A stretch of DNA of 61,734 nt, taken from assembly GCA_016928855.1 (NCBI GenBank), contig JAFGKA010000213.1:1-61734 (forward strand), written 5' to 3'. Positions 8,155 through 32,903 of the stretch are shown here, in pieces. This DNA comes from Phycisphaerae bacterium. GTDB lineage: Bacteria; Planctomycetota; Phycisphaerae; UBA1845; PWPN01. The position numbers and the translations under genes are program-made. The notes under the pieces were generated by a model. The model was given only the letters and a program-made list of their open reading frames with translations. It searched no databases and was not told the DNA's origin. Within the stretch, counting starts at the first letter, position 1. Every line of letters begins with the position of its first letter.

Positions 8155-8201
8155 CATCAGGCGCAGGCATATCCTGGACAACGCGCAACGGATCGTGTAC
8201 A
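8155..8201 (+). repeat. First 47 bp of the outer element end (interrupted by the inner element)
   Basis: 44/47 identical to 8202-8248; continues at 22234. Confidence 0.9.
8197..8201 (+). repeat. 5-bp target site duplication GTACA (left copy)
   Basis: GTACA directly abuts CATC at 8202 and recurs at 22229-22233. Confidence 0.85.
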
Positions 8202-8288
8202 CATCAGGCGCAGGCACATCGTGGACAACGCGCAACGGATCGTGGACAACGGCGGCGCAGAACATCACCGCAGGCGGTCGGATGACCG
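8202..8288 (+). repeat. Inner element end with tandem putative transposase-binding sites (GCGCA-N4/5-ATCGTGGACAA)
   Basis: ATCGTGGACAA at 8218 and 8239 (21-bp spacing); terminus CATCAGGCGCAGGCACATCGTGGAC. Confidence 0.85.
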
Positions 8289-8393
8289 TCGCGGTTCCAA
8301 AAAAATCGGAGAACCTCAACTTTTTTTCGGGGCCTCAAGCACCCCGAAAACGGCCCTTCGAAAGACCCTCAAACGGCCGTTCCGGGCCTATCC

Positions 8394-9536
8394 TCAAGCC
8401 GCGCTTCCACCGGGGCCGAGCACGGCCTCCAGGAGCTTCGCGGCTTCGACTCTCAGTACCCTGGCCTCTTCCGAGGCCGCCTCTTCTTCACCCCCAAGTT
8501 CTTCACCCCCAACCCCGCCGGCCTGGCCGTCCGGATCGTCGTCAAGGCCGTAGAGCATCGCCTTGGTGAATCCACCGTCCAGGGCTTCCGCCACGCCCAC
8601 GGACGCAGCCTGGAGCCTCTCTGCGATCGCCTCGAAGCTCTGGATGATCGCCTGGCGGATCTCGTTCGTTGTCGGCTCTTCGCGCTGTAGGATGCTCAGC
8701 GGCCCGGCCAGGTCACCCGACCGCGGGACGAACTCATCCGACGCGGCCAGCAGAAGCGAAGACTCCAGATCGGCCGTCACGACGCCGAGCCGGTCCAGCC
8801 CGTCCCGCACGGCCTCGACGATAATGTTCACGCCCCGGTCGATCGCATCCTTCCGCCTGGCCGTGCCGGCCTCGCGTGTCGCCTGCCACGTCAACTTCCG
8901 GGCCAGGGCGATGAGCCCTTCGAGCGGCTCCACGGCATCAAGCCGCGTATGACGCTGAAGCTCGGCGACAAGGGCGGCCTGAGAGTACGCTTGGTAGGCT
9001 GTGCGGCCGGCCACGTCTTGCGACATCGCCCGGATTAGCGCCTCACGGTTGCTCGGCACGGCCACGCAGGAGATCTCCACCAACTCCCAGGATGTTACGC
9101 GTCGCACACTCACCGAGCGCCCCGCGACCTGTTGCATCTCGGTCCGCCCGTCCCGGCGAAGGAAGCCGACGCTGAACGCGTTCATAAACCCACCGGCATA
9201 GAGCGCGCGATATTCCGGCCCGAGGCCGACCGGCGAAAACTCACCGCGGAACGGCAACGCTTCCTCGGTCGGTGCGATCTCCAGCACCTTGCCGATGACC
9301 GGGCTGTGCCCGCTCTCGAATCGCGGCTTGTGCATCGCCATCAGCACGGGGTTTTTCCGGTAGCTGGAGAGGTCCACGCCGCGCGGTTCCAGAATCTCAC
9401 CGTCGCGGTCGATCGTCCGCGCGTTGGCGAGTGCGCTGAACCGGCCCGAATCATCGACGCCCTTCTTGTCGATCTCGGCGAAGATGACGCCTTTCGATCC
9501 TATACCCAGGCCGTCTGGTTCCCGTACCTTTGCCAT
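8394..9536 (-). CDS. HK97-family prohead protease with long C-terminal extension
   Basis: IDRDGEILEPRG, NPVLMAMH, FSVGF, ELVEISCVAVPSN in the first ~170 aa of 380. Confidence 0.88.
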   Translation of the reverse strand: MAKVREPDGLGIGSKGVIFAEIDKKGVDDSGRFSALANARTIDRDGEILEPRGVDLSSYRKNPVLMAMHKPRFESGHSPVIGKVLEIAPTEEALPFRGEFSPVGLGPEYRALYAGGFMNAFSVGFLRRDGRTEMQQVAGRSVSVRRVTSWELVEISCVAVPSNREALIRAMSQDVAGRTAYQAYSQAALVAELQRHTRLDAVEPLEGLIALARKLTWQATREAGTARRKDAIDRGVNIIVEAVRDGLDRLGVVTADLESSLLLAASDEFVPRSGDLAGPLSILQREEPTTNEIRQAIIQSFEAIAERLQAASVGVAEALDGGFTKAMLYGLDDDPDGQAGGVGGEELGGEEEAASEEARVLRVEAAKLLEAVLGPGGSAA

Positions 9537-9539
9537 AAC

Positions 9540-11102
9540 CTACTCCCGTAGCGACTCGCCGCGCCGCTCCGGCGCCGGAGCCGGCCCGAAAAACTGGTTG
9601 CCGTGCACGTTTGTGATGTTGTTAATAATCTGCCCGGCCTCACTCGCCCGACCCGCCAAAATGGTCTCGGCGGTCGGATCGGGTAGCCCCCTTCGTGACC
9701 ACGGACGGCGGTAGCCACCGATCGACGCGCCGATGTCCCTCAGTTGGTCGATCTGCCCGGCGGTCTCTGGTGTTTCGCCGACCCGCCCGATCGCCTCCCC
9801 GATTCGTTCCTGTATCAGTTTGGCCTCAATGGCGGCGACTTCGTTTGCCGGCGGTCCGGAGAACACCCCCAGTTCACCTGTCGCGAGCTGCTCCTTGTAA
9901 ACCTCCTCCGCCTCCTGCCGCAGACGGGCCGCGTCAAATCGCCCTTGCATTCCACGACGAAACGCCCGACGTGCCGCATCCTGCCGGCTCTGCGCCAGCG
10001 GCGTCTTCGTGAACGCGGCCGCGTCCGCCATCGCTGCCGTCTGGTCGATGTTGCTCACCTCGGCGAACGCCGCGGCGCCGGCCGCGCGGCTACCGGCGCT
10101 GAACATCACGAACAGATCGCGAATGTCCTGCCCGCCCCCGAACGCGGCCGCCACAACGTCTTGCTGTTCGGGCGTGGTTACGCCGCCGAGAACCCCGCCG
10201 AGCAGTTGCATTCGCTTATCCAGGGTCATCGACCCGAACGCCTGGCCGCGTTCCTTTGCCGCAGCCTCCAGAAACTTGCGAGACTCCGGTGTTGGCCCGG
10301 ACGCCAGCCGCGCGAACGTCTTCATCGACGTGGCGGCCAGGCCACCTTCGGCCGCCTCCTGCCGCGCCGCCACCGCATATGCGACAGTCGTTTCCAGGTC
10401 CACACCCTGCGACAGCATCGACGTACCGCCCCGCAGCATCTGCCCGACAAACTCGCCGACCGTCTCGGCCTTGCTCATCTCGGCGCCGCGCTGAATAATC
10501 AGCGCCGCTTCCCACATGTCCCGGCCGGATGCGCTGATGATCTGGAGGAACTTGCCCGCCTCGGCCTCCGGAATCGCGCCGGCACCGACCAGCGGCGCGA
10601 ACGCATGCAGCTTTTCGAGATTCTCCCGAAGCTTCGGATTGCCCTTCCTGAGCCCCAACGAAATATCACCGCTAATCCCCAGTGACACCGCCGTCTGTAA
10701 GTCCGGCAATGCCCCGCGCTCCTGTATCTGCGTCGCAATCCGCAAGGCCCGCTGTTGGCCGGCGAGAGAGGTATCCCCTAATTGCTTGGCGAACGGAAGC
10801 ACCGTCTCAAGTGCCGTAAGCCCCTCGCGGGCGATTTCCTTCAGTGCCGCCTGCACCCGCTCAAGATGGCTAACGAGTGCGCCGATAACACCCACAATCG
10901 CCTGGATACCAACGAAGCCCGCTACAAATGCAACGGCGGCACCGCCAGCGTTCCGGAGCATCGCCCCGAGCCCGCCGGTTTTCTCTTTGGCCTTGTCGGC
11001 CTGCGTGCCGATCTGCTCCTCGGCGCCGGCCACGCCGCGGAGCTTCTGCTGCGCCTGCTCGGTCCCGTCGGCCGTTACCCGGATTTTGATTTCGTCAGGC
11101 AT
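9540..11102 (-). CDS. Short tail tape-measure-like protein
   Basis: N-terminus IKIRVTADGTEQAQQKL, hydrophobic Ala/Gly segment, Ala/Gly/Gln-rich helical body, C-terminal INNITNVHGNQFFG. Confidence 0.7.
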   Translation of the reverse strand: MPDEIKIRVTADGTEQAQQKLRGVAGAEEQIGTQADKAKEKTGGLGAMLRNAGGAAVAFVAGFVGIQAIVGVIGALVSHLERVQAALKEIAREGLTALETVLPFAKQLGDTSLAGQQRALRIATQIQERGALPDLQTAVSLGISGDISLGLRKGNPKLRENLEKLHAFAPLVGAGAIPEAEAGKFLQIISASGRDMWEAALIIQRGAEMSKAETVGEFVGQMLRGGTSMLSQGVDLETTVAYAVAARQEAAEGGLAATSMKTFARLASGPTPESRKFLEAAAKERGQAFGSMTLDKRMQLLGGVLGGVTTPEQQDVVAAAFGGGQDIRDLFVMFSAGSRAAGAAAFAEVSNIDQTAAMADAAAFTKTPLAQSRQDAARRAFRRGMQGRFDAARLRQEAEEVYKEQLATGELGVFSGPPANEVAAIEAKLIQERIGEAIGRVGETPETAGQIDQLRDIGASIGGYRRPWSRRGLPDPTAETILAGRASEAGQIINNITNVHGNQFFGPAPAPERRGESLRE

Positions 11103-11386
11103 TCTGCTCCCATCTTCTACAATTCCTGTCGCCCGGTCATCGGCCCGTGGCCGCGCTTGAACTGCGTTTCCACGCCACGAAAACGCCGTTCAAGGGCGGC
11201 CCCGGCTGGGGCAACCCTCACAAAAGGATAGCAGGCATCTGCGGGCGTTATCGCCGGCCCGGTGAGAAGCCCCGGGACTTGCCACGACCCGCTGGGCAAG
11301 CGCAGAGCCGGCCCGCTCCACGGGCTCACGTCGGCTCTGTATTTCTGATGCGTCGATCGCATGCTTTCACTTCATCACCGCGCCGA

Positions 11387-12592
11387 TCAGGAATCCGCGG
11401 TCTTCAAGCCGATGATTCCACCGGGGTTGCTCGCATCGCCGCGGCTGACGCAAACGAAGTCTTGCCTCTGTGTGGCCCTCACCGCGAGAAGATCCTGCGA
11501 GAAGTATGCATCCGTGCTGCGCGCGATCTGGAGATCCCTGCGGACGCCGAGCAGGCAGCTCTTGCGGAAATCGCCGAACAGCGCGCACACCTGCGTGTTC
11601 GCTTCTGTGGAGGGCATCTTCGAACTGAAGTGGACCGGGTAGCCCAAAAACCTAGTCTGGCCGCCGATCACACCTAAAGTTATCTCTTGGGCCGTGACAC
11701 CCCCCGCCGCAAAGGCGAGCTTTTGCATCACTTCGTAAAAGAACTTGCGGTGCACGAGCCACCGCGCGTTGGCGTCGGCAAAATTCGGCAGCAGCCCTAT
11801 GACCTCCTGAAAATCGGCGAGCGTTAACTCACTGTACGCGTTGCCGCTGCCGGTTACCTTGCTGCCGGCCTGCAGCGCGGCGCGGACGCCGAGCACCTCC
11901 AGGTACGTGCTCGATCCGTCCCCATTGATGGCACTGTCGTCCATCTGCTCTGACATCGCGGTCGCGACCTCGTCTACGAGATACTCGCCAACACCGATGA
12001 CAGCGTCTTCGCTGAGTTCGCTCGAAATGGCCGTCAGCACTCCCCATTTCCGGGCGACCAGGTTGACGGCCTGAAGTGTCGGCGTGCTCGCCGTGATCGC
12101 GTTCCCCTCGCCGGGTTGGTAGACCGTCAGACCGGCCGACGCGACGGGCCAGGCTTGTGAATCGTGGCTCATCGGGACGACGCGGGCGAGTTGTCGCATG
12201 ACCCCGTAGGTATCCTGCAACCGAAGCACTTCGGCTGCCATATCCCGCGGGACCAGGATGCCGCCGCCGGCCTCCGTGCCCTCAACCAGCGTCTTGACAT
12301 CGACACCGTACTCATCCGCGGCCTTCCGGGCCGCATCGCGTTTCCCGGCGAGCGCCATCGCGAGCACCCCGAACCCCTCCGCGGCTCGCCTGCTCATCAG
12401 CTTGCCGCCGTAGTCGCTCGGGATGCTCCGGATCTGCTCCCGCCAGGCGGTATACTGCTTTTCCTGCTCACGCTTGACGACGTCCAACTCATCGGCGAAC
12501 TTTCCGAGGATATCGTCATTCTTGCCGAGCTTGTCCGCCACAGCCTTGAGGCTGTGTTGCACCTCGCCCAGGGCACTATTCATCGTACTCAT
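11387..12592 (-). CDS. HK97-family major capsid protein
   Basis: Coiled-coil N-terminus, EGTEAGGGILVP, GEG, ISSELSED, AINGDG, FLGYPV, LFGDF, VRATQRQD; GAGAGG RBS before ATG at 12592. Confidence 0.93.
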   Translation of the reverse strand: MSTMNSALGEVQHSLKAVADKLGKNDDILGKFADELDVVKREQEKQYTAWREQIRSIPSDYGGKLMSRRAAEGFGVLAMALAGKRDAARKAADEYGVDVKTLVEGTEAGGGILVPRDMAAEVLRLQDTYGVMRQLARVVPMSHDSQAWPVASAGLTVYQPGEGNAITASTPTLQAVNLVARKWGVLTAISSELSEDAVIGVGEYLVDEVATAMSEQMDDSAINGDGSSTYLEVLGVRAALQAGSKVTGSGNAYSELTLADFQEVIGLLPNFADANARWLVHRKFFYEVMQKLAFAAGGVTAQEITLGVIGGQTRFLGYPVHFSSKMPSTEANTQVCALFGDFRKSCLLGVRRDLQIARSTDAYFSQDLLAVRATQRQDFVCVSRGDASNPGGIIGLKTADS

Positions 12593-12751
12593 TGTGTACA
12601 CCTCTCGCGGGCCGATGCCCGCGTCGTTCACTGTTCCAACCGCCGGCGTTTTTCAATCGGGCCACCGGCCCCGCCCGTCGTGCCCTCTTGTCTCGGTCTC
12701 GCGTATGCGCTGTCGCCGGCGAAGGCTGTCCGGCCGCGTGACGCTTGAGAC

Positions 12752-13174
12752 CTACTGCGACGGCTCCTCCGGCAATCGCAGAGCTGCATCCATCACCAGC
12801 CACGCCGCTTCCGCGACGCGTTCGGCGTCCGCCCCGGGGACCATCCGCCCAAGAGCTTCCACCACTTCGACGAAACCGCCGCCGCTACCATCGCGAATCG
12901 CGACGAAGCACGCATCGAGCAGTGGGCCCACCTCGACACCCAACAGATCCGCGGCGACCAAGACCGGTCGCACATAAACGTAGCGCCGTCGCAAGTCCCG
13001 CAGCTTCGCGTGCCCGCGGCTGATGATCCGCGGGATCAACCGCCGTAGTCGTGTCGCCTTGGCGTCGTCGATGCCGTCGAGTTCGGCGAGCCACGCCGGC
13101 GCCTTCGCCTCGAACGTTTCGAGTTCGTGCGCAAACTGGACCGCACTGGCGTTGACTATCGCGAGCTCACTCAT
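12752..13174 (-). CDS. Hypothetical protein upstream of capsid gene
   Basis: Co-oriented ORF MSELAIVNAS..., helical composition; no recognisable motif. Confidence 0.6.
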   Translation of the reverse strand: MSELAIVNASAVQFAHELETFEAKAPAWLAELDGIDDAKATRLRRLIPRIISRGHAKLRDLRRRYVYVRPVLVAADLLGVEVGPLLDACFVAIRDGSGGGFVEVVEALGRMVPGADAERVAEAAWLVMDAALRLPEEPSQ

Positions 13175-13325
13175 CGCACTGGACGCCCTCAAAACAAAGC
13201 GCGGCCAGGCGGACCCGTCCGGGCCAACCAAGCCGCACTGTTATCGGAATCCGTTCCTTCATATGATGGCATCCTGCCCACCGGGCCGCCGTCCCTGGCG
13301 GCCGCACCCGCCGCGATCGCGGCGC

Positions 13326-13694
13326 CTACTTCATCTTCGCCCGCCGCTTCTTTGCGGTCGCGTCCTTCGTCGCGTACCGTTGCCGCTCACGCCTCGCCTG
13401 CCGTTCCACCACGCCCACGCCGATGGCGTCCAGGTCGGCGCGGATCTCGGCGGCCAGGCCGATGACCGCCTTCCGCTCCGCGTCGTGGAGCTGCCCGCTT
13501 GCCAGCGTGTGCACGACCAGGCGCAGCCGCGCCGCACAGTCGGCTAACGCGTAGAACACGCCGGCCGCCAGGTCGTCCTTCATCCAATCGAGTGATAGAC
13601 TGTATTTCGAGACCTGCCCGAACCGCACCGGCGGTCCTTCGCCCTCGATTTCCTCCAGCGTCGGTATCGCCGTCTTGATTCCTGTTCCGTACAT
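13326..13694 (-). CDS. Hypothetical protein with basic C-terminus
   Basis: 122 aa, AAGGTG upstream, co-oriented with the operon. Confidence 0.65.
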   Translation of the reverse strand: MYGTGIKTAIPTLEEIEGEGPPVRFGQVSKYSLSLDWMKDDLAAGVFYALADCAARLRLVVHTLASGQLHDAERKAVIGLAAEIRADLDAIGVGVVERQARRERQRYATKDATAKKRRAKMK

Positions 13695-13762
13695 AGAACA
13701 CCTTCCCGTTCAATCACCGCACTTCCGCCATCAGGCGGGTTCGTCGGACTCCTCGGTCGCCA

Positions 13763-14218
13763 TTAGTCGGCGGCCGAGTCCTCGGTAAACGCAACACCCA
13801 TCTGTGCGGCCTTGCGACTTTGATATGACCGCCACTTCGCGTAGTTGTAGACAGCCGCACGTCCACCCCGACAATCGCCGCTCAGATGAAAGACTTCCGT
13901 CTTGCCAAACTTCGTAGGAATTGCCGCAACGCCGTAGTGCTTATCGAGCGTGGCGTAGCACTCCAGACAAATAAACGCCCTCCGGTGCTGGCTGTTTCTG
14001 TGATACTGAACGTAGGCCCGGAAGAACTCATCTTGAAGGTGTTCCGGGATGGCGTTCAAATCCGGAAACTTGTTCTTGATCCGCTCGAATTCGCGTTCAG
14101 GATCGACCCGCATCCGCACGGAGCGAGCCATGGGGGCTCGGCACCCGCACGCCTCACATTCGATCGTATTCTTCTTGCTCATGAATTTTGTCTCACTTGC
14201 GTGGTTCGGGGTTTTCAT
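13763..14218 (-). CDS. Hypothetical protein with two CxxC motifs (putative Zn-binding)
   Basis: CEAC and CLEC about 60 aa apart. Confidence 0.65.
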   Translation of the reverse strand: MKTPNHASETKFMSKKNTIECEACGCRAPMARSVRMRVDPEREFERIKNKFPDLNAIPEHLQDEFFRAYVQYHRNSQHRRAFICLECYATLDKHYGVAAIPTKFGKTEVFHLSGDCRGGRAAVYNYAKWRSYQSRKAAQMGVAFTEDSAAD

Positions 14219-14248
14219 TCACCTCAGCGCGCCGCCCGTTTTCACCCT

Positions 14249-14452
14249 TCATGCGGCACCGCCTGGCGACTCGTCGTAATCCGGTGAAAGGCCTTCGAGC
14301 ATATCCATAAGCGACCGCATCCCCTGCCACTTCATGCGCCGGGTGATCTCGGCCACGATCGTTGCCCGCCAGATCAACTCATCCAAAACGCCATCAAGAT
14401 CCTCGGCGGTCCCTTTCTTTAGTTCCGCCAACATTCGTTCGCGCGTTGTCAT
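14249..14452 (-). CDS. Small hypothetical protein, paralog of 14449-14763
   Basis: Shares the EDLDxVxxELxxRAxIxAxIT...M..L...E...PDxD pattern; ATGA overlap with its neighbour. Confidence 0.7.
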   Translation of the reverse strand: MTTRERMLAELKKGTAEDLDGVLDELIWRATIVAEITRRMKWQGMRSLMDMLEGLSPDYDESPGGAA

Positions 14453-14763
14453 GATTGGATGACCTCCGCCTTCTGCTGTTGGCCTTCACCTGCATCGCCG
14501 CCGCTCGGGTCGAGAAGCTCACCGACCTCTTCATCATCCAGATCCGGTACGGTCGATTCCTGGAGGTTCTTCAGTATCTTCATGTCCCAGTAATGCAGTT
14601 GCCCTGTGATCCTCGCGATGATTCTCGCCCGCGCCCGCAACTCGCCGCAGACGGCATCAAGGTCTTCCTCGCTGGCACACTTCAGCAGCGTGTCACAGAC
14701 GATATCGAAGTCCTCGCCCTTCGCGCCCCTCAACAGCGCTAGTAGTTCCTTCTTTGTTACCAT
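14449..14763 (-). CDS. Small acidic hypothetical protein, paralog of 14249-14452
   Basis: AGGAG RBS; MVTKKELLALL... Confidence 0.7.
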   Translation of the reverse strand: MVTKKELLALLRGAKGEDFDIVCDTLLKCASEEDLDAVCGELRARARIIARITGQLHYWDMKILKNLQESTVPDLDDEEVGELLDPSGGDAGEGQQQKAEVIQS

Positions 14764-14944
14764 GATCCCGTACTCCTGTGCCTGTGAAATGGAGCCCGGC
14801 CCGCCGGCAACCCGCAAGGGGGGATCGCGGGGGCAGCCGTAGTGGTCGGCCGCCGGCCGGCAGGGCCGGGCACGCTTGGATACGTTACGGCCACTACCCG
14901 CAACGCCATTGGAAACCCATTCGAACTGTTGTTACTTCGCGTTT

Positions 14945-16219
14945 TCACGCCGTCCTCGGGGCATACAACTGCTGCACCTGGCGGTCAGTCTCGGCCGTCA
15001 CATCGTCGCCCATCGCCAGCCGGTTCGCCTGGCGGACCATCTCCAGAGTGATGAGCGGCTTTCCCGGATTCGCAATCATCGCGATCTCGAAAACACTGAT
15101 GGCATACCGAAGCCCGCCGCCCTCGACGCCGTCGCCGAGCGCCGTCAGATTCGCCAGGTCGGTCAGGAACTTGATCGCGCCGCGTTCAATCCGCACGGTA
15201 TACTTCCCCAACATCTCGGCGACCTCCTCGACACTGAAAAGCCGCTCGCCATCTCGCCCACCGGTCTTCTGACTGCGTGCGAGCAAGTCCCGTTGGATGC
15301 AGATCCGGCCGACGATACTGCCGCCGATCCGCTCATCCCGCTGCGACCGTTTGAGCTTCGCAACCAGCAGCGGCCGGCCCGCCAGAACCACCGGACAGCC
15401 TGTCGCGTCATGGATCTGGCGAATTGCGTTGAGCGTGTCCGCCGGCAACGCGTCCGCCTCGTCCGCGACGATCAGCCGCTTCGAGCCGGCCAGCCTTGCG
15501 ACGATCGCAGAGAAGCCGGCGGCAAGCGTGCACACCCCTTCATTGTGGGATGCCCCCGCCACGCGGCCCGGCAGTGCCGAACCCGTGCGGATGCACCGAA
15601 GCAATGTGCGGTAGAAATGCAGCGGGGCCTTGCAGGAGTCGTTGATCTCGACGTACAGCCCGCTCGGGAAATCCTTGGCCATCACCGCGCGGAGGGCGAG
15701 CGTTTTGCCGATGCCCGACGGCCCGTAAACGACACCCATCCCGCCGCGAAGATCGACCGTCTTGACGATCGCGAACACCTCGCGCGCTACACCCGTCGTG
15801 ACGAACTCGCCCTTGGCCGGCGCGTTGGCCCGCGCGGCCTCACGGGCCAGTGCCGCATCGAGCGAGCGCAACACATCATCCCGCCGGTTGCGTTCACCCT
15901 GCCGCCCTGAATCGCCCTGCAACGCCATGCCCAGCACGTACACAGACACGCCGCATAGCCGCGCCAGATCCACCCGGGACGCGCCAGTCGCCCGCTGATA
16001 GACTTCAGCGCGGCCGACAATCTCGGCGCGGATTTCCTCGGTCAACTCGGCCCCGGGTTTGACGCGCGGCGTGCTTTCGACGCGCGCGGCCCGCTCGATA
16101 CCATCCATGGCGTCCGGTGGCGCATCCGGCGGCATGGCCGGCGCGAATGGATCAGTAACCCAGTCGGATACATGTCCGCCCGGGGGAATCGTCGGCTTGT
16201 TGTGTGGTGTGTCCGTCAT
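14945..16219 (-). CDS. MuB-like AAA+ transposition ATPase with N-terminal HTH
   Basis: VYGPSGIGKT (Walker A), LIVADEAD (Walker B), IRQIHD, PVVLAG; HTH SRVDLARLCGVS; overlaps the transposase stop. Confidence 0.9.
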   Translation of the reverse strand: MTDTPHNKPTIPPGGHVSDWVTDPFAPAMPPDAPPDAMDGIERAARVESTPRVKPGAELTEEIRAEIVGRAEVYQRATGASRVDLARLCGVSVYVLGMALQGDSGRQGERNRRDDVLRSLDAALAREAARANAPAKGEFVTTGVAREVFAIVKTVDLRGGMGVVYGPSGIGKTLALRAVMAKDFPSGLYVEINDSCKAPLHFYRTLLRCIRTGSALPGRVAGASHNEGVCTLAAGFSAIVARLAGSKRLIVADEADALPADTLNAIRQIHDATGCPVVLAGRPLLVAKLKRSQRDERIGGSIVGRICIQRDLLARSQKTGGRDGERLFSVEEVAEMLGKYTVRIERGAIKFLTDLANLTALGDGVEGGGLRYAISVFEIAMIANPGKPLITLEMVRQANRLAMGDDVTAETDRQVQQLYAPRTA

Positions 16220-18141
16220 CCTGCATCAGCCTCCGGGAAGCTTGCTGTCTCCTGGCTCCAGCTTTTCGCTTCCTCCTCATCCTCGACGGTGTCGCGAAAT
16301 AGGTCCGCGAAGCTCAGCGGCACCGCGGCTTCATCGGTGCGCTCGACGCGCTGCGCATCAATCGCACCCGCCAGGTCATCCAACGTCAGCGCCTCATCAG
16401 GCCCGGTTCCGCACCCGGCCGGCTCTGAGCCCGACACACGAAACTGACACATCGCGTCCGCCCAGTCGCTCTTCAGCGGCCGTATCGTGCGCGTCGGCGC
16501 AGCGTCATCGGTGCCGGTCGCGGCGATCAGGCCATTCATCGCGTCATGTTCGCGCTGACGTTTGGCGGCGCGATTCCGCGCATCAATGGCCGCTTCGGTA
16601 ACAGTTTGCATCGCGGCGCGCGTGCCGCCGTCCTGGACCGCGCTGGCCAGCCGGCGGGCCTGTTTCTTGGCTCGCATTCCCTTGGCGATGTCATCACGTG
16701 ATGCACGTGCAAACGCCAGGCGGTTATTCGTCGCCCGGCAGATCGGCTTGCCTTCAAGATCGCACACAACAACATACGATGCATCTTCGGGATGCACGCG
16801 AAGCAATACTTCCTTGCCTTGCAAGAGCTGAAGCCTGGCTTCTCCGAGCCCATACTCGATGCCGTCGTGGCGAACGCCGAAACGCGTAACCTTGACCGGC
16901 CGGCTTACGCGCATCAGCAAGAGGTCCATGAGCCCCTCAGGCACAACGACGCGCGGAATCGGGTTCGACGCGTTGAACACGTCGATCGGGGCACGTCCGT
17001 TCATGTCCACGCCGCGGTGTGGTGTGCGGTGATACGCGTCAATGTATTTCGTGAAGCCATCCCGATACCGGGCGATTGTCGGACACCGCTCGGGATGTGC
17101 TTTCGCAACCCTGTAGGCGGCCTGGAATCGCGCGTCCTTCTTGCCTCCGCAATACGTTTCGTAGGTGGCACCGTACTGGCCTTCGAGCGTTCCAAACCAT
17201 CGTTCAATCAGCTTCGAATCAGGGTTGAATGGAAGCGCAAAGCTAACTTCGGAGCCGACGCCGCCGAAGACGGAACGGCAGTAGTCCTCATCTTCGATCA
17301 GCCGTTTCGTGGTCGGCCGCCCGCCGCTGATTCCCTTGGCGCGGTAGGGCTTGCCGTTGTCGATGATGACCTCGGCCGGTGGCCCCCACTTCTCAATACC
17401 GTCGCGGAAGGTTAAGAGTACGGCGTCTTGGTTCTCGGTTTCGCCGATCGTCCAACCCGTAACGATGCGGCTTCGCAGGTCGATGAACGCGCCCAGCCGC
17501 GGCCGAATGATTTCCGGGTCCGCATCGCTGCGCCGGCAAAAGACATCGACGATATGGAAGTCGCCAACCCAGCACTGATTCGCGCGGTATTCCGTGTAGT
17601 CGCGAGAAGGAACCCGCACGCCGTGCTTACGATCCCATTCCTCTTCGCCGAGCCGGTACCGGTTCGCTTCGAATTCGGAAATCTCACGTCTGACTTTCGC
17701 TTGAACCGTCCGCAGCGAAGGCCACGCCCAACCCTGGCGCTCTGCCTCCGCGGCAACAAGCTGGCAACACAAGGCCACGGTCCGTTGCTGTCTCGTCAGC
17801 CAGAATTTCTTGAACAGATTCCACGCCTCCGGCGAACATGATTCCCGCCGCGTATCGCGATTCGCTCGCCGCCGGCCATCAACAAGACCGAGCACGTCGC
17901 CGGCCTCAATCAGGCGCGCCCAGTCGTGCAGTTTCGAGCGCCCGACCCCGTGCATCCCGCAGAACACCCGGTCGGCCTCGCCCCGCGTTGCCCCACGGCG
18001 CACCAAATCACAGCGCATCTGCTTCCACTCGGACACAATCCGCGTCTTGCGCCCGACCTCAAGCCGCTGTTCATCCGACAACCCCGCAAGCGCCGCCCGT
18101 TGCGGATCGACGGCAATCTCTCGGCGCGCCGCAAGTGCCAT
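16216..18141 (-). CDS. MuA-like DDE transposase
   Basis: ANQCWVGDFH (D), VIIDNGKPY (D), SKLIERWFGTLE (E), YHRTPH, Mu C-terminal beta-barrel-like VTRFGVRHDGIEY; two N-terminal HTH-like regions. Confidence 0.93.
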   Translation of the reverse strand: MALAARREIAVDPQRAALAGLSDEQRLEVGRKTRIVSEWKQMRCDLVRRGATRGEADRVFCGMHGVGRSKLHDWARLIEAGDVLGLVDGRRRANRDTRRESCSPEAWNLFKKFWLTRQQRTVALCCQLVAAEAERQGWAWPSLRTVQAKVRREISEFEANRYRLGEEEWDRKHGVRVPSRDYTEYRANQCWVGDFHIVDVFCRRSDADPEIIRPRLGAFIDLRSRIVTGWTIGETENQDAVLLTFRDGIEKWGPPAEVIIDNGKPYRAKGISGGRPTTKRLIEDEDYCRSVFGGVGSEVSFALPFNPDSKLIERWFGTLEGQYGATYETYCGGKKDARFQAAYRVAKAHPERCPTIARYRDGFTKYIDAYHRTPHRGVDMNGRAPIDVFNASNPIPRVVVPEGLMDLLLMRVSRPVKVTRFGVRHDGIEYGLGEARLQLLQGKEVLLRVHPEDASYVVVCDLEGKPICRATNNRLAFARASRDDIAKGMRAKKQARRLASAVQDGGTRAAMQTVTEAAIDARNRAAKRQREHDAMNGLIAATGTDDAAPTRTIRPLKSDWADAMCQFRVSGSEPAGCGTGPDEALTLDDLAGAIDAQRVERTDEAAVPLSFADLFRDTVEDEEEAKSWSQETASFPEADAG

Positions 18142-19262
18142 CAGGCCGCCCCCTTCGTCTCTGTTACTGCCCTGCCCGCTCCCTCCCCGCGGATCTCGAC
18201 GAAGAAATCAACCGGCACACCAAACGCCACGGCCATCCGGCACACGACCCCCATCGTCGGCGTGACGACACCGGCCAGCCATCGCCGCACGGCCGGCGGC
18301 GTCGTATGGACACGCTGGGCGAGCCCCTCGACCTCTAGTCCATGTTTCACCATCAGGTCAGCCACCGCCTCCCGCCGGAACACCGGCCGCGGCGGCGTTG
18401 TTTTCGGCGTCTCGGCCGCGGCCCGGCCCGTGTCAGCCGATGCCGGGCGTGTTGCGGACGCGGCCCGCACCCCTGCCGACAAAAACGCGAGTTCACCATC
18501 ATCGACTTGCCGCATCAAAATCCGTTCGGCGCGGCGGAGGATGTTGGTCTGCACCCGCTCCACCTGCTTGCGGCCGTACCCAAACCGATCGCCGATCTGC
18601 CTCGCTGGCGTAGCGTAGGCTGGCATCGTACAAAGTCGCCCGTCAAGCAGCGCGCGGCCCACTTCACGATTCAGCGGCTTGCGCATGGTGGCGATGACAT
18701 CCGCCAGCACGGCGCGCACGTGTTCAACCGCACGAAAGTAGACGTCTTCCGGAATTCCATCCGCCCGGCCTGGCCGCGAGAGCGGCCGACCACGCCGCCC
18801 GCGTCGCTGGCGAACGCCGTCGCCGACGGCCTCGGTCAGCGAAAACGACCGGCAGGCATCAGTAATCCGATCCCGCGTGCCGGCCGCAATGCCGCCGGTC
18901 CCCCGCAGAGCATGCGATACCGTGTTCGGCGAGATAACGACCGCGCGTCCATGCTCCATCCGGAACCGCCGAATCGCCCGCCGAACGCGAATCGTCGCGT
19001 AATACCCGAAGGTCATGCCCGGGTAACGGCCCTGTTCCGCCCGCCAGTCAAGAGCCGTCTCGATCAGCGCGACGACCGCCACGATGATGTAATCGTCCCG
19101 GTCATAGTATCGGCCCTCGACCCTCGACAACGCCGCATTATTGGCACTCTTAATCGCCAGCGGAACATGATCCAGAACCAGCCGCCGTTCATCGGCCGTC
19201 AGCCTTCGCTCCCCGCCGCGGCGGTTCGTCCGGACCTCAGTTTTTCGCGTTTTTATTGACAT
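18141..19262 (-). CDS. Sigma-70-like protein (regions 2 and 4) fused to a C-terminal XRE HTH
   Basis: LVLDHVPLA...DRDDYIIVAVVALIE...TFGYYATIRVRRAIRRF; ARQIGDRFGYGRKQVERV; LAQRVHTTPPAVRRWLAGVVTP...AFGVPVDFF. Confidence 0.75.
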   Translation of the reverse strand: MSIKTRKTEVRTNRRGGERRLTADERRLVLDHVPLAIKSANNAALSRVEGRYYDRDDYIIVAVVALIETALDWRAEQGRYPGMTFGYYATIRVRRAIRRFRMEHGRAVVISPNTVSHALRGTGGIAAGTRDRITDACRSFSLTEAVGDGVRQRRGRRGRPLSRPGRADGIPEDVYFRAVEHVRAVLADVIATMRKPLNREVGRALLDGRLCTMPAYATPARQIGDRFGYGRKQVERVQTNILRRAERILMRQVDDGELAFLSAGVRAASATRPASADTGRAAAETPKTTPPRPVFRREAVADLMVKHGLEVEGLAQRVHTTPPAVRRWLAGVVTPTMGVVCRMAVAFGVPVDFFVEIRGEGAGRAVTETKGAA

Positions 19263-19792
19263 TATCCGCGCTTCCGCCGACGCGCGCCGTGTGTCGTTTT
19301 TAAGGCATCATCCGCGCCAGCCACCGGCGAGACCACGCCATCGCGTACCCATCGACACACGTCGGCGATCTCGACCCGGCCGCGATGCAACCCGGCCGGA
19401 CGCCGAAGCCGCCAACGTGGCACGCCATCGCGGTCCCGTTCACACGCCGCCAGGCCAAGGTCAGTCAACAGCCGAAGCCGGATCTCGTCTGCTGGGTCGC
19501 GAGCGTATCTCACGCGTCCCCATACCCGCCGCGGCTCGCTGATTGCCCCGCGTTGAAGCCCACTATCCCCGCGCCGCAATGCTGCTCGCCGCCAACGAAA
19601 CAAGCTGCTGGCCGAGACCCGCAGCCGGGGATACTCCGCCTGAATCGCGCGCAACAACGATCCCATGGCTGCCGTGCGAGACCCCCACGGTACTCGCTGC
19701 ACTTCGTCGAGCGCGGCAACCCACGCGCGCCTCTCCTGCTCGGTCGCCTGTCGGCGGTCAGATGGTGCCGTCCTGTTGCGACGTCGGGTCAT
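19262..19792 (-). CDS. HTH DNA-binding protein resembling a Mu transposase end-binding domain
   Basis: VSASSLFRWRRAALRRGDSGL motif; overlaps both neighbours. Confidence 0.6.
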   Translation of the reverse strand: MTRRRNRTAPSDRRQATEQERRAWVAALDEVQRVPWGSRTAAMGSLLRAIQAEYPRLRVSASSLFRWRRAALRRGDSGLQRGAISEPRRVWGRVRYARDPADEIRLRLLTDLGLAACERDRDGVPRWRLRRPAGLHRGRVEIADVCRWVRDGVVSPVAGADDALKTTHGARRRKRG

Positions 19793-20058
19793 GCGGCTTC
19801 GTCCCCCGCCTGCGGCTCAACTTCTTGCTTGGCTAACACCCCGGCCTCGGCCGTTGTAGACACAATTAGTGCGGAGACTGGGACGCGCAGCGCCCGCGCC
19901 ACGCCCCGCGCGACCCGCACGCCCACCGGCCGCCCGCTGAAGACCAAAGACAATGTCGCAGGCGCGACTCCCGCCTTCGCCGCAACATCCTTCTTCAGTA
20001 GGCCGCGGCGCGTCCGAATGTCGTCAATCAATCTGGCGTTCAGCACAACCTTGGCCAT
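19789..20058 (-). CDS. Cro/Ner-position XRE HTH regulator
   Basis: RTRRGLLKKDVAAKAGVAPATLSLVFSG...VARALRVPVSALI; first gene of the leftward operon. Confidence 0.85.
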   Translation of the reverse strand: MAKVVLNARLIDDIRTRRGLLKKDVAAKAGVAPATLSLVFSGRPVGVRVARGVARALRVPVSALIVSTTAEAGVLAKQEVEPQAGDEAA

Positions 20059-20111
20059 GGCCGCCCACTGCACCCTTTGTTGTCCATACGAATAACAGCT
20101 CGTCTTTTGAG

Positions 20112-20140
20112 AAGATACAACACATCCGGCCTGGAGTCAA
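20112..20140 (-). promoter_or_regulatory. Leftward (early operon) sigma70-type promoter
   Basis: Minus strand TTGACT-17 bp-TATCTT. Confidence 0.7.
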
Positions 20141-20162
20141 CCCCAAAATCGTCTTTTGTCCA

Positions 20163-20191
20163 TTGCTTATTCATCTGGGCTGCCGTATACT
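20163..20191 (+). promoter_or_regulatory. Rightward (repressor) sigma70-type promoter
   Basis: TTGCTT-17 bp-TATACT, ending 6 bp before GTG at 20198. Confidence 0.7.
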
Positions 20192-20197
20192 GCATCC

Positions 20198-21736
20198 GTG
20201 GCCACGGACGAACAGTTATCCGCATACATGGAATCCGTGCGCAGGCAGCGGGGTCTCCCCGCTAGTGCTGTGGCCTGCCGGTCAGGCGTTTCACTTGGCC
20301 ATATCCGCAATATTGAGAGGGGCTTGCGCCATCCGAAGGCCGCGGTGCTGGCGCGAATTCTCGACGCCCTCGACGCCACGGACGTTGAGCGGGCTGAGGC
20401 CCGCCGCCTGGCGGGTATCGACCCGAATCCGTCCACATCAAAGGAAGCGCGGGCGGCAAGACGGGGGAAGTGGCAGCCCCTCACCTTCATTCTGGCAAAC
20501 GACATACTACTTCCGTGCCTGCGGCTCGATTACGCGTTCGGCGCGCGCCTTGATCTCGCGGGCAACGCCTGGGCACTGGTCCATCAAGCCCTGAAGGCCG
20601 CCGACATGGCGACGTTCGTGGACCAGACCGCCGATGTTGTATCGCCGCCGCCGGACTTGACCACACTGCTCGAATCATCGTTCGGACATGCCCCGGCGGA
20701 CCTTGTTGAGGGTCTCGAATCACTCCTGTCTGACGAGCGGTATCTCAACGAGATGAATCGGCACTCAGGTCAACCCCCGCTGGCGTGGAAACATACGATG
20801 TTGCGATCGTTGATCCTGTCGCCAGCGCCTCCCACAGGCAAGGACGCGGTTTTCCTTCGTGATGTCGTCGAAATGCTCACGTTTGACCGCAGCTTCGCCG
20901 TATGCTTCTTCCCGGCCGTCTATTGGACGGCTTGCCGCAACTGGCCGTTTGAAAAGGTTTGGATGCCATTGTCACGGGCCTCGAAATCCCTGCAAAAAGC
21001 TGTGTATGAGCGAATCCAGGCCGGTTTATCGCTCGAAGATTTCGACCGCGCGATGATCGGTCAAGGTGATCTCGGGGACGTGGTCCGCCGGGCCGAGCCC
21101 GCGAGATTCTCTCCCGATGAAATGGCCGACAGTCCAGGAAGACCTTGGTCGTGGGAGGTTGGCCGGGGATCGTGCCGGGTAACATTCAGCGGGCCGCGCC
21201 CACCGAACGATCTTGCTTTCGATCATCTCGACCGCTGCACATTCCTGGAACGGTTCCCGTATTTGAAAGTTGACCGAGAGGCCGCCGCAAAGCTCGCCCG
21301 CTCCGTTATGCTGCCGTCGTGGCAAGCATGGGTAGACCATATTATCCAACACGAACCAGCCGTCCCGGCGGACCACCCCCTGCGCTCCAAGGACCGCTTC
21401 GACGCGGTCGTTGCCGAATACCGCGACACAGAGACCCGCGAGCCGAACTATGGCGAGCTTCCGAGCCTCATTCACCGGCTGGTATCACTGAAGGCTGGCT
21501 GGGCAATGGCGGCCTTGGAGGGGTGGGCCAGCGGCGGCCTTGCAGAACCTGGCCGCCGAACGAGGATCGCCGCGATGCTTGGTTTCCGTGATGCCTGGCA
21601 AGATATCATCAGAAAACTGGAAGAGGAAACACCGCCCGGGGGCGCTGAGAAGCCGACCGCCCCGGACACACAACCGGCCAAGCGTAGGCGGCCCGGCCGC
21701 AATGCCACAAGGCCGGGAAGACGGGAGCAAGCGTGA
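20198..21736 (+). CDS. Repressor-position XRE HTH protein with large unknown C-terminal domain
   Basis: VRRQRGLPASAVACRSGVSLGHIRNIERGLRHPKAAVLARILDAL; divergent from the Cro-like gene. Start inferred. Confidence 0.8.
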   Translation: MATDEQLSAYMESVRRQRGLPASAVACRSGVSLGHIRNIERGLRHPKAAVLARILDALDATDVERAEARRLAGIDPNPSTSKEARAARRGKWQPLTFILANDILLPCLRLDYAFGARLDLAGNAWALVHQALKAADMATFVDQTADVVSPPPDLTTLLESSFGHAPADLVEGLESLLSDERYLNEMNRHSGQPPLAWKHTMLRSLILSPAPPTGKDAVFLRDVVEMLTFDRSFAVCFFPAVYWTACRNWPFEKVWMPLSRASKSLQKAVYERIQAGLSLEDFDRAMIGQGDLGDVVRRAEPARFSPDEMADSPGRPWSWEVGRGSCRVTFSGPRPPNDLAFDHLDRCTFLERFPYLKVDREAAAKLARSVMLPSWQAWVDHIIQHEPAVPADHPLRSKDRFDAVVAEYRDTETREPNYGELPSLIHRLVSLKAGWAMAALEGWASGGLAEPGRRTRIAAMLGFRDAWQDIIRKLEEETPPGGAEKPTAPDTQPAKRRRPGRNATRPGRREQA

Positions 21737-22011
21737 CCATAGAGCCCGCCCCGGACCGCCCGCCCCGGCCACCGGCCGACGCTCGAGCCGCCGACGGAAG
21801 GGCGGTAAGCCGTGAGCCCACGGTGCCCTGCCGACCAGGAGCCACCACAGAGAGGAATACACCACCGCGATCGGCGCCGCCTCCGCGTCTCGGCCACCCG
21901 GCAGACTGGACGCCGAAAAGGCCCCTCCGTCCCGGGTTCTCCACAGACCCGAGCCGCATTGTCAAGAAGTTTGGCACACCAAATGCTAGGGGTAAAAAGC
22001 CCCTTGAATGG

Positions 22012-22228
22012 CCGTCCAAGATGCGCTGCGCGTTTTCGGCCCTATCGCCGCAACTCCAGCCCCCGCCAACAATTACGCTTGTCCACGATAGGCCCGATTT
22101 CTGCGCACACCCCCGATTTTGACGATTTATCCACGATAGGCGCCGCGGCCCATAACCCCAGCCCCAGCAAGCATTTAACCCCGTTTTTCTGCCCTTTTTA
22201 TTCGTCCACGGTTTTCCTGCGCTCGATG
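22012..22228 (-). repeat. Inner element repressor-proximal end with spaced putative transposase-binding sites
   Basis: Minus-strand ACCGTGGACGA (22202-22212), ATCGTGGATAA (22127-22137), ATCGTGGACAA (22079-22089), GCGCAGCGCATCTTGGACGG (22012-22031); terminus CATCGAGCGCAGGAAAACCGTGGAC. Confidence 0.85.
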
Positions 22229-22233
22229 GTACA
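22229..22233 (+). repeat. 5-bp target site duplication GTACA (right copy)
   Basis: Directly follows GATG at 22228. Confidence 0.85.
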
Positions 22234-22273
22234 GCGGCGGCGCAGAACATCGCCGCAGGCGGTCGATTGACCG
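22234..22273 (+). repeat. Continuation of the interrupted outer element end
   Basis: 36/40 identical to 8249-8288. Confidence 0.9.
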
Positions 22274-22297: not shown

Positions 22298-23248
22298 TCA
22301 TCCGAACGGCATCTTGACATGCTTGCGGAGGAACGCGACATTCTGCGCCGTCGCTTCGACAACCTGTGCGCGGTTCTTGTGATCAGATTCGAAAACGTAC
22401 CACCCGTCGTAGCCGATCTCGTTCAGCACCTCCAAGGCAGCCCGCCACTCGACCAGCCCCGATTCACTAAGAAGCCGGTCTCCGTTCTTGACGTGCACTT
22501 GGCAGATTCGATCCTTGCCCAACAGCCTGATACCGGGTATGGCCTCGGCTGGATGACCGTACTGCGCCATGTTGTAAGGATCGTAATAGACCTTGACGCT
22601 AGGGTGAGCAACCTCATCGAGGAGCTTCTTGTTGTCAGCGGGGCTCAGCGAGTTCTCGAGGCCAAGCGTTACTCCCGCATCGGCGGCCTTTGAAGCCACA
22701 CGCTGGAAAACTTGGACCACCGGCCCGTAGGACGATTCGTCGGCCATGTCGGGGGCGTCGTTCCGGAAGAAGGCGACCAAGACCACGCCGGATCCCAGGC
22801 TCTCGGCAACCCGGATCGCCTTCGTCAGATTGCTCTCGGCTGTTGGGGATTGCATGATCGACACGCCACTGTCCCACACACCGGCCAGCGAAGGAATCAT
22901 CATGCCCCATCGATTGGCTTCTCGCTTGTAGCGACGCACCGCATCCGGGTCCCACAGATTGGGCTTCCCGCTTGCGACCTGGAGTTCTATGCCCAGCAAG
23001 CCAGGGATCTGTCGGGCCAGCTTGAAGACGTTGAAATCGCCAACCATCCTCATGCTGGCGGCGCGGTGCCCGATTTTCAAAGGAATCCGAGTATTCTGTT
23101 CCGCTGGTGCGGCCTCCGCCGGGCGAGCCGACGGCGTCATGAAACTGGCTCCAACGGCCGCCGCTCCCCAGGATGCGAGCTTGGCAAACTGCCGTCGAGA
23201 CATGCCAACTCGGGAAGACGGTCGCGACCTCTCGGTCTTGGTTCTCAT
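22298..23248 (-). CDS. Tat-exported sugar phosphate isomerase/epimerase family protein
   Basis: SRRQFAK; LGLEN, YYDPYN, VHVKN, YDGWYVFE. Confidence 0.8.
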   Translation of the reverse strand: MRTKTERSRPSSRVGMSRRQFAKLASWGAAAVGASFMTPSARPAEAAPAEQNTRIPLKIGHRAASMRMVGDFNVFKLARQIPGLLGIELQVASGKPNLWDPDAVRRYKREANRWGMMIPSLAGVWDSGVSIMQSPTAESNLTKAIRVAESLGSGVVLVAFFRNDAPDMADESSYGPVVQVFQRVASKAADAGVTLGLENSLSPADNKKLLDEVAHPSVKVYYDPYNMAQYGHPAEAIPGIRLLGKDRICQVHVKNGDRLLSESGLVEWRAALEVLNEIGYDGWYVFESDHKNRAQVVEATAQNVAFLRKHVKMPFG

Positions 23249-23310
23249 CGCCGTTACCTCACGTTGGCTGGTTCGAGACTGCTCCAGCCTGTCGATTCCG
23301 AGGTCCTGTT

Positions 23311-24525
23311 TCACGTAACCTCCGAAGCCTTGATATGGCGTCGCTCCGCCAGGGACATCTGGGCCGCCTGCGCAATCAGGACAGCCGGTAGGTGATCTCG
23401 GGCCGATGGGAAGGCCGGTTTCTTACCCTGCACGGCATCGAGAAAGTGCAGGTACTGTAGGGTTGACGGGTCGGTTTTCGATGTGGGCAATTTGATCGCT
23501 TCCATCTTATCCGGTCCTGTGCCCTTGCCGTAGGGACGCCAATACGCGCACTTGCGGACGATGGCCTCACCCGCCCCCCGCGAGCCAAGCTGCAGCGTGG
23601 CGTTCTCACCGAAGAGGATATCCGGCCCCGGTCCGCCGCAGGAGTAGAGGTTGCCCCCATACGTCATCAAGGCGCCGTTGGCATACCGGACCACGATGCC
23701 GGCGTGGTCCCATGAGTCCCGGTTCTGCAGCTTCCTGTTGTGAACGCCGCCAAGGCACGTGATCTCGACGGGCTCATCACCGATGAACCAGTTGAACACA
23801 TCAATCGTGTGGATTCCCATCTCGTAGACGACGGACCCGCCTTCATCCTGTCTCATCCGCCAGTTCTTCTGAGAGTCCTCCTCCGGATCAGGATAGAGCT
23901 TGACCCAATCTGCACGGAATGTCTGAGCTACGCCGTACAGGACGGGCCCGATCAGGCCCTCGCGCAGCTTCTGGGCCAGCGCGGCATAGCCCGGAGAATG
24001 GCGGCTCTGTGTGCCCACCTGTACAATCCGCTGTGTCCGGCCGGACGCGTCAATGATCGCCTTCGTATCGGCTACCTTCAGGGTCAGCGGCTTCTCACAA
24101 AGAACATGCTTTCCGGCTTCGAGTGAAGCGATCGTGCCCTCTCGATGGAGCGTGTTCGGCAGAACCACGACCACGGCGTGAACGTCCGCCTCCTTGAGCA
24201 TCTTCGTGGAGTCCGTATACAACCGAGGTTCACCGGACTTGACCATCTTCTTTTTCTCTTCCAGCTTTTCAGGCAGGATGTCACACAGTGCCGCCACCTC
24301 CATGTGCTCGGCCAGGTGATTGACCGCCTGGATGTGAGCCTGGCTGCGGTTTCCGCACCCGAGGATGCCAATCCGAAGCTTCTCTCCCGGCTTCAGCGAG
24401 GCTGCACTGATGAACGTCTGGGGGGCATCCGCGCCCTTGCAGATCCTGCTTGCGAGCCCAAGGCCCGCCGAGGCGAGTACACTCCTGACCAGAAACGAAC
24501 GACGTGTCTGTTCTTCATACGACAT
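23311..24525 (-). CDS. Tat-exported Gfo/Idh/MocA oxidoreductase
   Basis: TRRSFL; GILGCG; GKHVLCEKP; HTID. Confidence 0.9.
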   Translation of the reverse strand: MSYEEQTRRSFLVRSVLASAGLGLASRICKGADAPQTFISAASLKPGEKLRIGILGCGNRSQAHIQAVNHLAEHMEVAALCDILPEKLEEKKKMVKSGEPRLYTDSTKMLKEADVHAVVVVLPNTLHREGTIASLEAGKHVLCEKPLTLKVADTKAIIDASGRTQRIVQVGTQSRHSPGYAALAQKLREGLIGPVLYGVAQTFRADWVKLYPDPEEDSQKNWRMRQDEGGSVVYEMGIHTIDVFNWFIGDEPVEITCLGGVHNRKLQNRDSWDHAGIVVRYANGALMTYGGNLYSCGGPGPDILFGENATLQLGSRGAGEAIVRKCAYWRPYGKGTGPDKMEAIKLPTSKTDPSTLQYLHFLDAVQGKKPAFPSARDHLPAVLIAQAAQMSLAERRHIKASEVT

Positions 24526-24589
24526 TGTGCTACCTCCTGGTTTGCTATTGCGGTCACAAGCGATAATGAGGCGAGACCGGCCTTGAACG

Positions 24590-25492: not shown

Positions 25493-25526
25493 GCACTACC
25501 TCCAGCCATCCAAACGCTCATAGGAG

Positions 25527-27301: not shown

Positions 27302-27312
27302 ATACCTGCACC

Positions 27313-28776: not shown

Positions 28777-28867
28777 GGTCTGACCTCGCAATTGTCTCGT
28801 CTTCCTGACTGGAGGTGATACCGGCCCATGGATGTTGTCTTGCGTGCGCCCGGGCCGATCGGCCCAG

Positions 28868-30361: not shown

Positions 30362-30444
30362 GTCCGCAGACTCCTCGCTTGTGCGGCGGGCATCGCCGCG
30401 CCCCATACGGCCTCCACGTTCCCTGTAACCGATGCCTCGCCACG

Positions 30445-30509: not shown

Positions 30510-30522
30510 CCGTGTAATAACC

Positions 30523-32902: not shown

Positions 32903-32903
32903 C

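Follow-up and report, generated by a model that had tools for sequence, protein, structure and literature searches.

The 61,734-bp contig analysed here (C322, one whole contig of a Phycisphaerae bacterium assembly, hereafter the window) carries a compact Mu-family element of 14,027 bp which is nested in an 87-nt block resembling its own late end. We favour, with moderate confidence, the explanation that this element inserted into a decayed, transposase-less relic end at which target immunity was not engaged, i.e. that the insertion escaped immunity rather than defied it. As an observation, the nesting is one well-documented event in a single metagenome-assembled genome (5.28 Mb [5,282,483 bp] in 606 contigs, 91.6% complete). 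Coordinates of all features are compiled in Table 1.

The 47 nt at positions 8155-8201 are repeated at once at 8202-8248, with 44 of 47 positions identical. The 40 nt that complete the block are found at 22234-22273 and represent one exact match in the window where none was expected (100 shuffles). When the flanks are joined with one copy of the target duplication, i.e. when 8202-22233 is removed, they form an 87-nt block (8155-8201 plus 22234-22273) that aligns without gaps and in direct orientation with the first 87 nt of the element (8202-8288); 80 of the 87 positions are identical, and the mismatches fall at positions 16, 20, 44, 48, 66, 80 and 81. As expected for a Mu-like element, the inner element (8202-22228) is bordered on both sides by a 5-bp duplication, GTACA (8197-8201 and 22229-22233). 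Its termini, CATCAGGCGCAGG at 8202 and the reverse complement of CATCGAGCGCAGG ending at 22228, agree at 11 of 13 positions. The GTACA target corresponds to relic positions 43-47 and thus lies 42-47 nt inside the relic end, within the second copy of a repeated 11-mer. Both GTACA copies contain the T of relic position 44, and this T thus predates the insertion. Judged from the sequence, insertion with duplication of the target accounts for the whole structure without gaps. Two other interpretations were rejected: (i) a TG...CA parse (8196-22233), which leaves no duplication and can be upheld only if the relic lost 6 nt precisely where its two parts meet; (ii) homologous recombination with the relic, which predicts hybrid ends, whereas a full end follows after 47 nt and the 5-bp duplication is exact. 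The restored block with its 80 of 87 identical positions in the same orientation, and the location of GTACA within the second repeat, had both been described in the initial annotation of this DNA and were confirmed by ungapped alignment. That annotation also spoke of a transposase-binding site, which is correct insofar as the insertion lies inside a repeated motif, the repeats themselves being putative transposase sites.

An assembly artefact is unlikely to be the source of the nesting because the copies differ at seven positions (three between the 47-nt copies, four between the 40-nt pieces at 8249-8288 and 22234-22273), because the tandem region of 134 nt is shorter than a typical read, and because two assemblers agree. 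In X1, the probable source run, a 29,202-nt contig produced by a different assembler spans positions 7000-23500 with no differences; as this contig derives from the same reads as the assembly, the agreement does not constitute independent data and is no substitute for long reads. The uninterrupted 87-nt form was absent from the contigs of four runs, bearing in mind that contigs cannot prove absence. A joint from 14550 to 22274 in X1 was taken as spurious (short side of 23 nt, 8-mer in common).

Target immunity, the avoidance of DNA that carries cognate ends, is a textbook rule for Mu, Tn7 and Tn3. In Mu, end-bound MuA clears MuB from nearby DNA, most strongly within ~5 kb of the ends, and self-insertions numbered 0 in ~10 million wild-type events as compared with 85 in the absence of MuB (PMC7350765). 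For Pseudomonas phage Ab30, 0.4% self-insertions were reported, with end domains of 900 bp and 700 bp almost free of them (PMC5977238, section 3.5). Internal or proximal insertions of the Tn7-like element Tn6022 are described in natural genomes despite very strong immunity in assays (PMC11014353). These findings concern live elements with transposase on their ends; the target in the present case lacks a transposase gene. We propose that an older element of related type left behind 87 bp of its late end, that the compact element entered this remnant by ordinary MuA-type strand transfer, and that a 5-bp staggered cut gave rise to the GTACA duplication. The relic encodes no transposase, and its second repeat had already been mutated at the time of insertion. 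Transposase must sit on target ends to clear the MuB-type ATPase; if the relic bound little of it, as we infer, the ATPase would not have been cleared and immunity would probably have been weak or absent. In addition, the G-to-T change places a flexible pyrimidine-purine step at the centre of the 5-mer, which may have become more bendable and a better target; bendable targets are reportedly favoured by Mu (PMC5357137).

In the initial annotation the case had been placed in the frame of Mu and Tn7, and the target was regarded as the end of a sibling which had been entered against immunity. MuA-like and MuB-like genes support the Mu half of this frame, while the Pfam scan revealed no Tn7-type proteins. 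A live sibling finds no support in the outer span between the two relic ends, which is devoid of a transposase, contains sugar-metabolism genes only and has no flanking duplication. Nor is an insertion in defiance of immunity supported by a relic that lacks a transposase gene and whose hit repeat was off consensus before the insertion. The other possibility raised there, escape from immunity at a diverged end, comes close to the explanation favoured here, given the pre-existing T in the hit repeat.

A second sample, run X2 from a different study, contains a close relative of the locus. A 7,227-nt contig of this run is 92% identical to positions 7000-8155. The match ends where the relic begins, with base 8155, and is not resumed at 22274; the remaining 459 nt of the contig fit nothing in 7000-23500 at 90% identity. 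Position 8155 is thus a true breakpoint when these close relatives are compared. At an identity of at least 90%, X2 did not contain the interior of the element.

Several observations weigh against an insertion into a non-immune relic. First, an X2 contig of 257 nt aligns end to end with 8166-8421 across the junction between relic and element (14 differences, one indel; depth 5.2 as compared with 16.3 for the 7,227-nt contig), so that a simple recent insertion may understate the age or the heritability of the tandem. The X2 pattern would reflect either an old nesting in which this strain has since lost or exchanged the guest, or a tandem that travels with an end. Second, the relic has kept 80 of 87 positions and an identical 13-nt terminus and may therefore bind transposase well. 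Third, under uniform target choice the odds that the only copy in the assembly hits the only 87-bp relic late end are ~1.6e-5 (87/5,282,483), or ~4e-5 if the early-end relic is also counted; the window was selected and flagged for the nesting, and the figures thus do not amount to a test. To some extent these odds argue for a non-random link, which might be a weak affinity for ends, a hotspot at this place or a common history of the locus. Fourth, the late-end relic (L') and the early-end relic (R') are correctly oriented for a single unit.

The repeated 11-mer, ATCGTGGACAA, is present in two exact copies in the inner late end (8218-8228 and 8239-8249). In the inner early end it occurs in inverted orientation at 22079-22089 (exact), 22127-22137 (one mismatch) and 22201-22211 (terminal, degenerate). 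Paired copies were found at these element ends only in the whole assembly. Both repeats of the relic late end deviate from the exact inner 11-mer, which is represented twice in the inner late end and once in the inner early end: site 1' (ATCCTGGACAA, 8171-8181) is off the consensus by one base, and site 2' was truncated by the insertion (ATCGTGTACA, 8192-8201). They are nevertheless variants of the inner type, unlike the two clear repeats of R', both of which show the same different variant (ATCGTAGAGAA, ATCGTAGATAA). The 11-mers are likely to be transposase sites, as judged from their position in the element ends. They are contiguous at the late end and spaced over ~150 nt at the early end, a layout which we take to mirror attR (late end) and attL (early end) of Mu. 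The same 11-mer pair also forms 21-23-bp iterons directly upstream of Rep_3 initiators in unrelated phyla (L028, L033, L035, L036); the 11-mer alone is therefore not specific for a transposase site and presumably resembles a DnaA-box-type word. All four ends, two intact and two relic, start with CAT (8202-8204, 22226-22228, 8155-8157 and 36652-36654). TG...CA termini are the rule for elements of the Mu and Tn7 types, and the element, when parsed with its only exact duplication, reads CA...TG. Termini of Tn6022 are given as TGT/ACA (PMC11014353).

On the strength of its predicted proteins the element is Mu-like, not Tn7-like. The transposase possesses Mu-specific DNA-binding and C-terminal domains and could be aligned to the Mu transposase structure 4FCY (E value 3.9e-19). 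The residues D, D and E, which we take to be the catalytic ones, are kept in this alignment, pointing to an intact triad, and the gene for a MuB-type ATPase is located directly downstream of the transposase gene. Families of the TnsA, TnsB, TnsC and TniQ/TnsD types were not detected in the Pfam scan of open reading frames (ORFs) between 8.2 and 36 kb. The virion functions recognized among the inner ORFs scanned (11 with Pfam, 13 with PHROGs, 12 with NCBIfam) were limited to a capsid protein and a protease, the capsid gene being placed ahead of the protease gene. Genes for portal, terminase, tail or lysis proteins were not recognized, and in the gene map no space is left for further large genes. 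The only leads for the 520-amino-acid protein are long helical look-alikes of the tape-measure type (Atlas feature score 0.96; structural TM 0.47-0.52), and four further small ORFs are unassigned. The element looks like a complete transposon but is not autonomous as a phage, and might be either a satellite-like element capable of transposition or a prophage with an internal deletion. Its composition is typical of the genome. It represents a new compact Mu-family lineage.

Table 1. Features of the nested Mu-family element and its surroundings in the window (strand: + or -; gene functions are predictions)
Feature	Position	Strand	Basis
Relic late end, first part (L'a), 47 nt; 13-nt terminus same as inner	8155..8201	+	repeat family D5, 94%
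Left target duplication GTACA	8197..8201		sequence
Inner Mu-family element, 14,027 bp; genes nearly all on minus strand	8202..22228	-	sequence, Pfam, PHROGs
Late end: terminus CATCAGGCGCAGG and two exact ATCGTGGACAA; attR-like contiguous arrangement	8202..8288	+	sequence
Prohead protease-like, 380 amino acids	8394..9536	-	Peptidase_S78, E 5.7e-05; phrog_80, E 6e-19
520-amino-acid protein, no family	9540..11102	-	Pfam, PHROGs, NCBIfam
HK97-type major capsid protein	11387..12631	-	Phage_capsid, E 5.6e-39; TIGR01554, E 9e-51
MuB-like AAA+ ATPase	14945..16219	-	AAA_22, E 2.5e-15; phrog_296 'DNA transposition protein', E 6.8e-37
MuA-like DDE transposase	16216..18141	-	DDE_2, 8.3e-10; HTH_Tnp_Mu_2, 1.3e-09; Mu-transpos_C, 8.6e-09; phrog_310, 1.5e-85
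HTH_3 regulator, 373 amino acids	18141..19262	-	Pfam
HTH_31 regulator, 526 amino acids; divergent, repressor-like position by early end	20156..21736	+	Pfam, PHROGs
Early end, three spaced sites, terminus 22216-22228; attL-like arrangement	22079..22228	-	sequence
Right target duplication GTACA	22229..22233		sequence
Relic late end, remainder (L'b), 40 nt	22234..22273	+	repeat family D8, 91%
Sugar-catabolism cluster; context rather than element genes	22298..35954		Pfam
Short frame-broken minus-strand ORF pieces, 560 nt	35955..36514	-	ORF map
Relic early end (R'), inward-facing, terminus at 36654	36515..36654	-	blastn, E 1.9e-11 and 5.8e-12

The exact transposase protein was found on this contig only, and the nearest among 5.8 billion proteins was at most 54% identical. 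Related transposases were detected in 10 of 61 genomes of relatives (E <= 0.001; best 45-49% identical) and in five of 35 genomes of the family (E <= 1e-60), both counts including the genome under study (G000); in a phylum sample the only hit among 401 genomes at E <= 1e-100 was G000 itself. The three closest contigs (G034, G025 and G030) have only the transposase and the ATPase in common with the element. These contigs are short, and their ends could not be defined by motif or by a search for inverted repeats plus duplication, which was dominated by noise even on the window. Outside this contig, no other copies or relic ends were found in the own genome (blastn with both ends and with the whole element; repeat and terminus scans). 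A transposase search of the viral_contigs and genome_contigs collections yielded no locus, the exact 23-nt end pattern had no match in viral and metagenome contigs, and a metagenome scan with the left-flank regulator gave 50 pattern matches but no relatives. The paired-repeat pattern did not match in viral contigs and matched 11 loci in genome_contigs. No MuA- or MuB-like gene was present within 2 kb of any of these loci, and they were thus rejected as siblings; four of the eight that were scanned with Pfam are iterons beside Rep_3 initiators.

Outside the inner element, similarity of the relic late end to the inner end ceases abruptly past 87 nt. The stop codon (22298) of an intact xylose-isomerase-like gene follows 24 nt past L'b, and its product can be aligned over its full length with the orthologue of genome G015. 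The gene belongs to a cluster that encodes xylose-isomerase-like TIM barrels, GFO/IDH/MocA oxidoreductases, a fucose-isomerase-like protein, ROK, Fe-ADH, a split transketolase, RpiB and TauE; in the interval 22274-36514 Pfam detected neither a transposase nor a phage gene. Two other genera of the family (G015 and G028; 62-84% amino-acid identity) have conserved pieces of the cluster, with neighbours that differ. For the adjoining 560-nt stretch (35955-36514) no family, paralogue or PDB relative was found. The best tblastx likeness, a weak one, connects 36323-36451 with the region of an inner ORF of 151 amino acids (E 8.5e-5 over 43 amino acids), and an impression that the stretch resembles a fragment of a helicase or restriction enzyme found no support in these searches. 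Over 109-140 nt, R' shares 72-75% of its positions with the inner early end, as compared with 92% for L' and the inner late end. The late-end relic would be a deletion or excision footprint, and the pair may represent two separate footprints or the decayed borders of a once-mobile unit.

The latter possibility leads to an alternative that we regard as doubtful but the best of those considered, namely that the outer pair delimits a genuine mini-Mu-like unit, non-autonomous and 14.5 kb long (28.5 kb if the guest is included), with the sugar-catabolism genes as cargo. In a variant, the pair would be what decay has left of the outer ends in a Mu-host-Mu composite. The inner element would sit in such a unit as a potential helper. 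Such a unit is compatible with insertion into a decayed relic as well as with a homing mechanism (see below). The late-type and early-type ends face each other in the correct orientation, their similarity to the inner ends stops near the extent of the site-bearing regions (87 and ~140 nt), and the X2 relative (92% identical) leaves the window exactly at 8155 without resuming at 22274. The composition of the cluster is mildly atypical, the G+C content of 0.613 corresponding to the 6th percentile of random 14-kb segments and the tetranucleotide distance to the 92nd percentile, but this signal is not significant. The outer borders show no 5-bp duplication (gcggg at 8150-8154 versus ggttt at 36655-36659), and the two ends, whose divergence from the inner ends is unequal, differ in their site variants. 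Moreover, no Mu-end-like DNA was found beside the cluster pieces of G015 and G028 within their available flanking sequence, and a fingerprint search for the right-flank gene as a contig-end fragment in close relatives returned nothing above 84% identity. Engineered mini-Mu(LR) units resemble the outer pair in having a late end opposite an early end with non-phage DNA in between (PMC3145075); they differ from it in that the outer pair has no border duplication, consists of unequal ends with unlike variants and gives no sign of past movement. The 28.5-kb composite proposed earlier is therefore right in its arithmetic (8155-36654, 28,500 bp) and in the orientation of its ends, but is weakened by the missing duplication, the 72-75% identity of the far end and its different site variant.

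End-directed homing, in which transposase bound to the terminal repeat of the relic would tether an incoming transpososome into the adjacent, unoccupied degenerate repeat, appears unlikely. Cognate ends would then act as beacons instead of immune zones. The low odds of coincidence under random choice (~1.6e-5) speak for homing, as do the direct orientation and the position of the insertion ~15 bp beyond the better-preserved terminal repeat of the relic; own-end targeting is known in another transposase family, that of IS30 (PMC9333248). The nesting is, however, a single event for which no sibling was found in the genome, in relatives or in public collections, and it is the very feature for which the window was chosen for follow-up. 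The Mu-family systems described so far in the sources considered avoid their own ends (PMC7350765, PMC5977238), and targeting of the IS30 type produces an end-to-end junction beside the repeat rather than a 5-bp duplication inside an end (PMC9333248).

A regional hotspot, i.e. intergenic DNA features that draw Mu-family insertions so that the new copy arrived 47 bp from the old insertion point by preference for the locus, is less probable still. It would explain why up to three Mu-family events are clustered within 28.5 kb with none elsewhere in the 5.28-Mb assembly. This count presupposes that the two relics are independent, no hotspot feature was identified, and fragmented assemblies such as this one, with 606 contigs and 91.6% completeness, often lose repeats. 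An equally small chance is given to the combined proposal that cognate ends serve as landing beacons and that a helper nested in a relic pair is able to move the 14-kb sugar cluster as a natural mini-Mu. Finally, a tandem without nesting, either an intrinsic duplicated element end or an assembly error, can practically be dismissed: an X2 contig carries the same tandem in a run that lacks the interior, but with the 40 nt past the far terminus the 87-nt block is complete and has no gap, the inverted termini have an exact 5-bp duplication on either side, the copies differ at seven positions, and two assemblers agree.

The element resembles Mu in its MuA-type transposase, which contains the Mu Igamma DNA-binding and C-terminal domains, in the MuB-type ATPase that follows, in the 5-bp duplication, in the several site-like repeats and in the helix-turn-helix regulators at the early end. 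It differs from Mu by its CA...TG instead of TG...CA termini and by the lack of recognized portal, terminase, tail and lysis genes. It is also smaller (14 kb versus ~37 kb for Mu; PMC7350765). With phage Ab30 the present case shares the entry of a Mu-like element into related Mu-like DNA despite immunity; in Ab30, live copies were entered during lytic replication and their ends were largely spared, whereas here the end of a gene-less relic was entered (PMC5977238). Tn6022 provides a parallel for natural nesting within or beside a sibling, in Acinetobacter islands, but it relies on TnsABC with TniQ and TnsF, is specific for comM, and its nesting is tied to a TnsC-TnsF fusion (PMC11014353); none of these proteins was detected here in the Pfam scan. 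In IS30, own end sequences are a preferred target of the transposase, and the insertion abuts the repeat, adopts a strict orientation and forms an end-to-end junction in a copy-out-paste-in process; the element inserts adjacent to its own inverted repeats (PMC9333248). End-targeting of the IS30/IS911 type does not fit the present insertion, which is directly oriented, has a 5-bp duplication and is situated 42-47 nt within the relic. In a literature search that was not exhaustive, no published report of a Mu-family element nested in an end site of a sibling was found.

The likely and modest lesson of this case is that the immunity rule lapses on decayed relics without transposase. If, as is unlikely, ends are actively sought, the consequence would be important, namely that some lineages have turned end recognition into targeting. 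The 87-bp sequence together with the compact element would make a natural substrate for testing immunity versus homing in vitro. Natural cases of Mu-type ends moving a metabolic gene cluster are rare, and the outer pair, if it proves to be a genuine unit, would be one of them.

Scans of the window for tRNA genes and Rfam families returned nothing. Three minor observations were made in addition. Downstream of the TauE orthologue in G028 (contig C722, L025; positions ~900-1250), what appears by eye to be the 3' part of a tRNA is followed by unrelated DNA, and this stretch may be another integration site. Among further sugar-utilisation genes of the window, the ORF at 42165-43094 gave a weak HEPN AbiU2-like match (E 7e-05, below the Pfam cut-off). 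Repeats of ~80-90 nt occur directly at 6201 and 6309 (6201-6389) and in inverted orientation at 60309-60506; they are 72-78% alike and probably correspond to a protein domain common to two genes at opposite ends of the contig.

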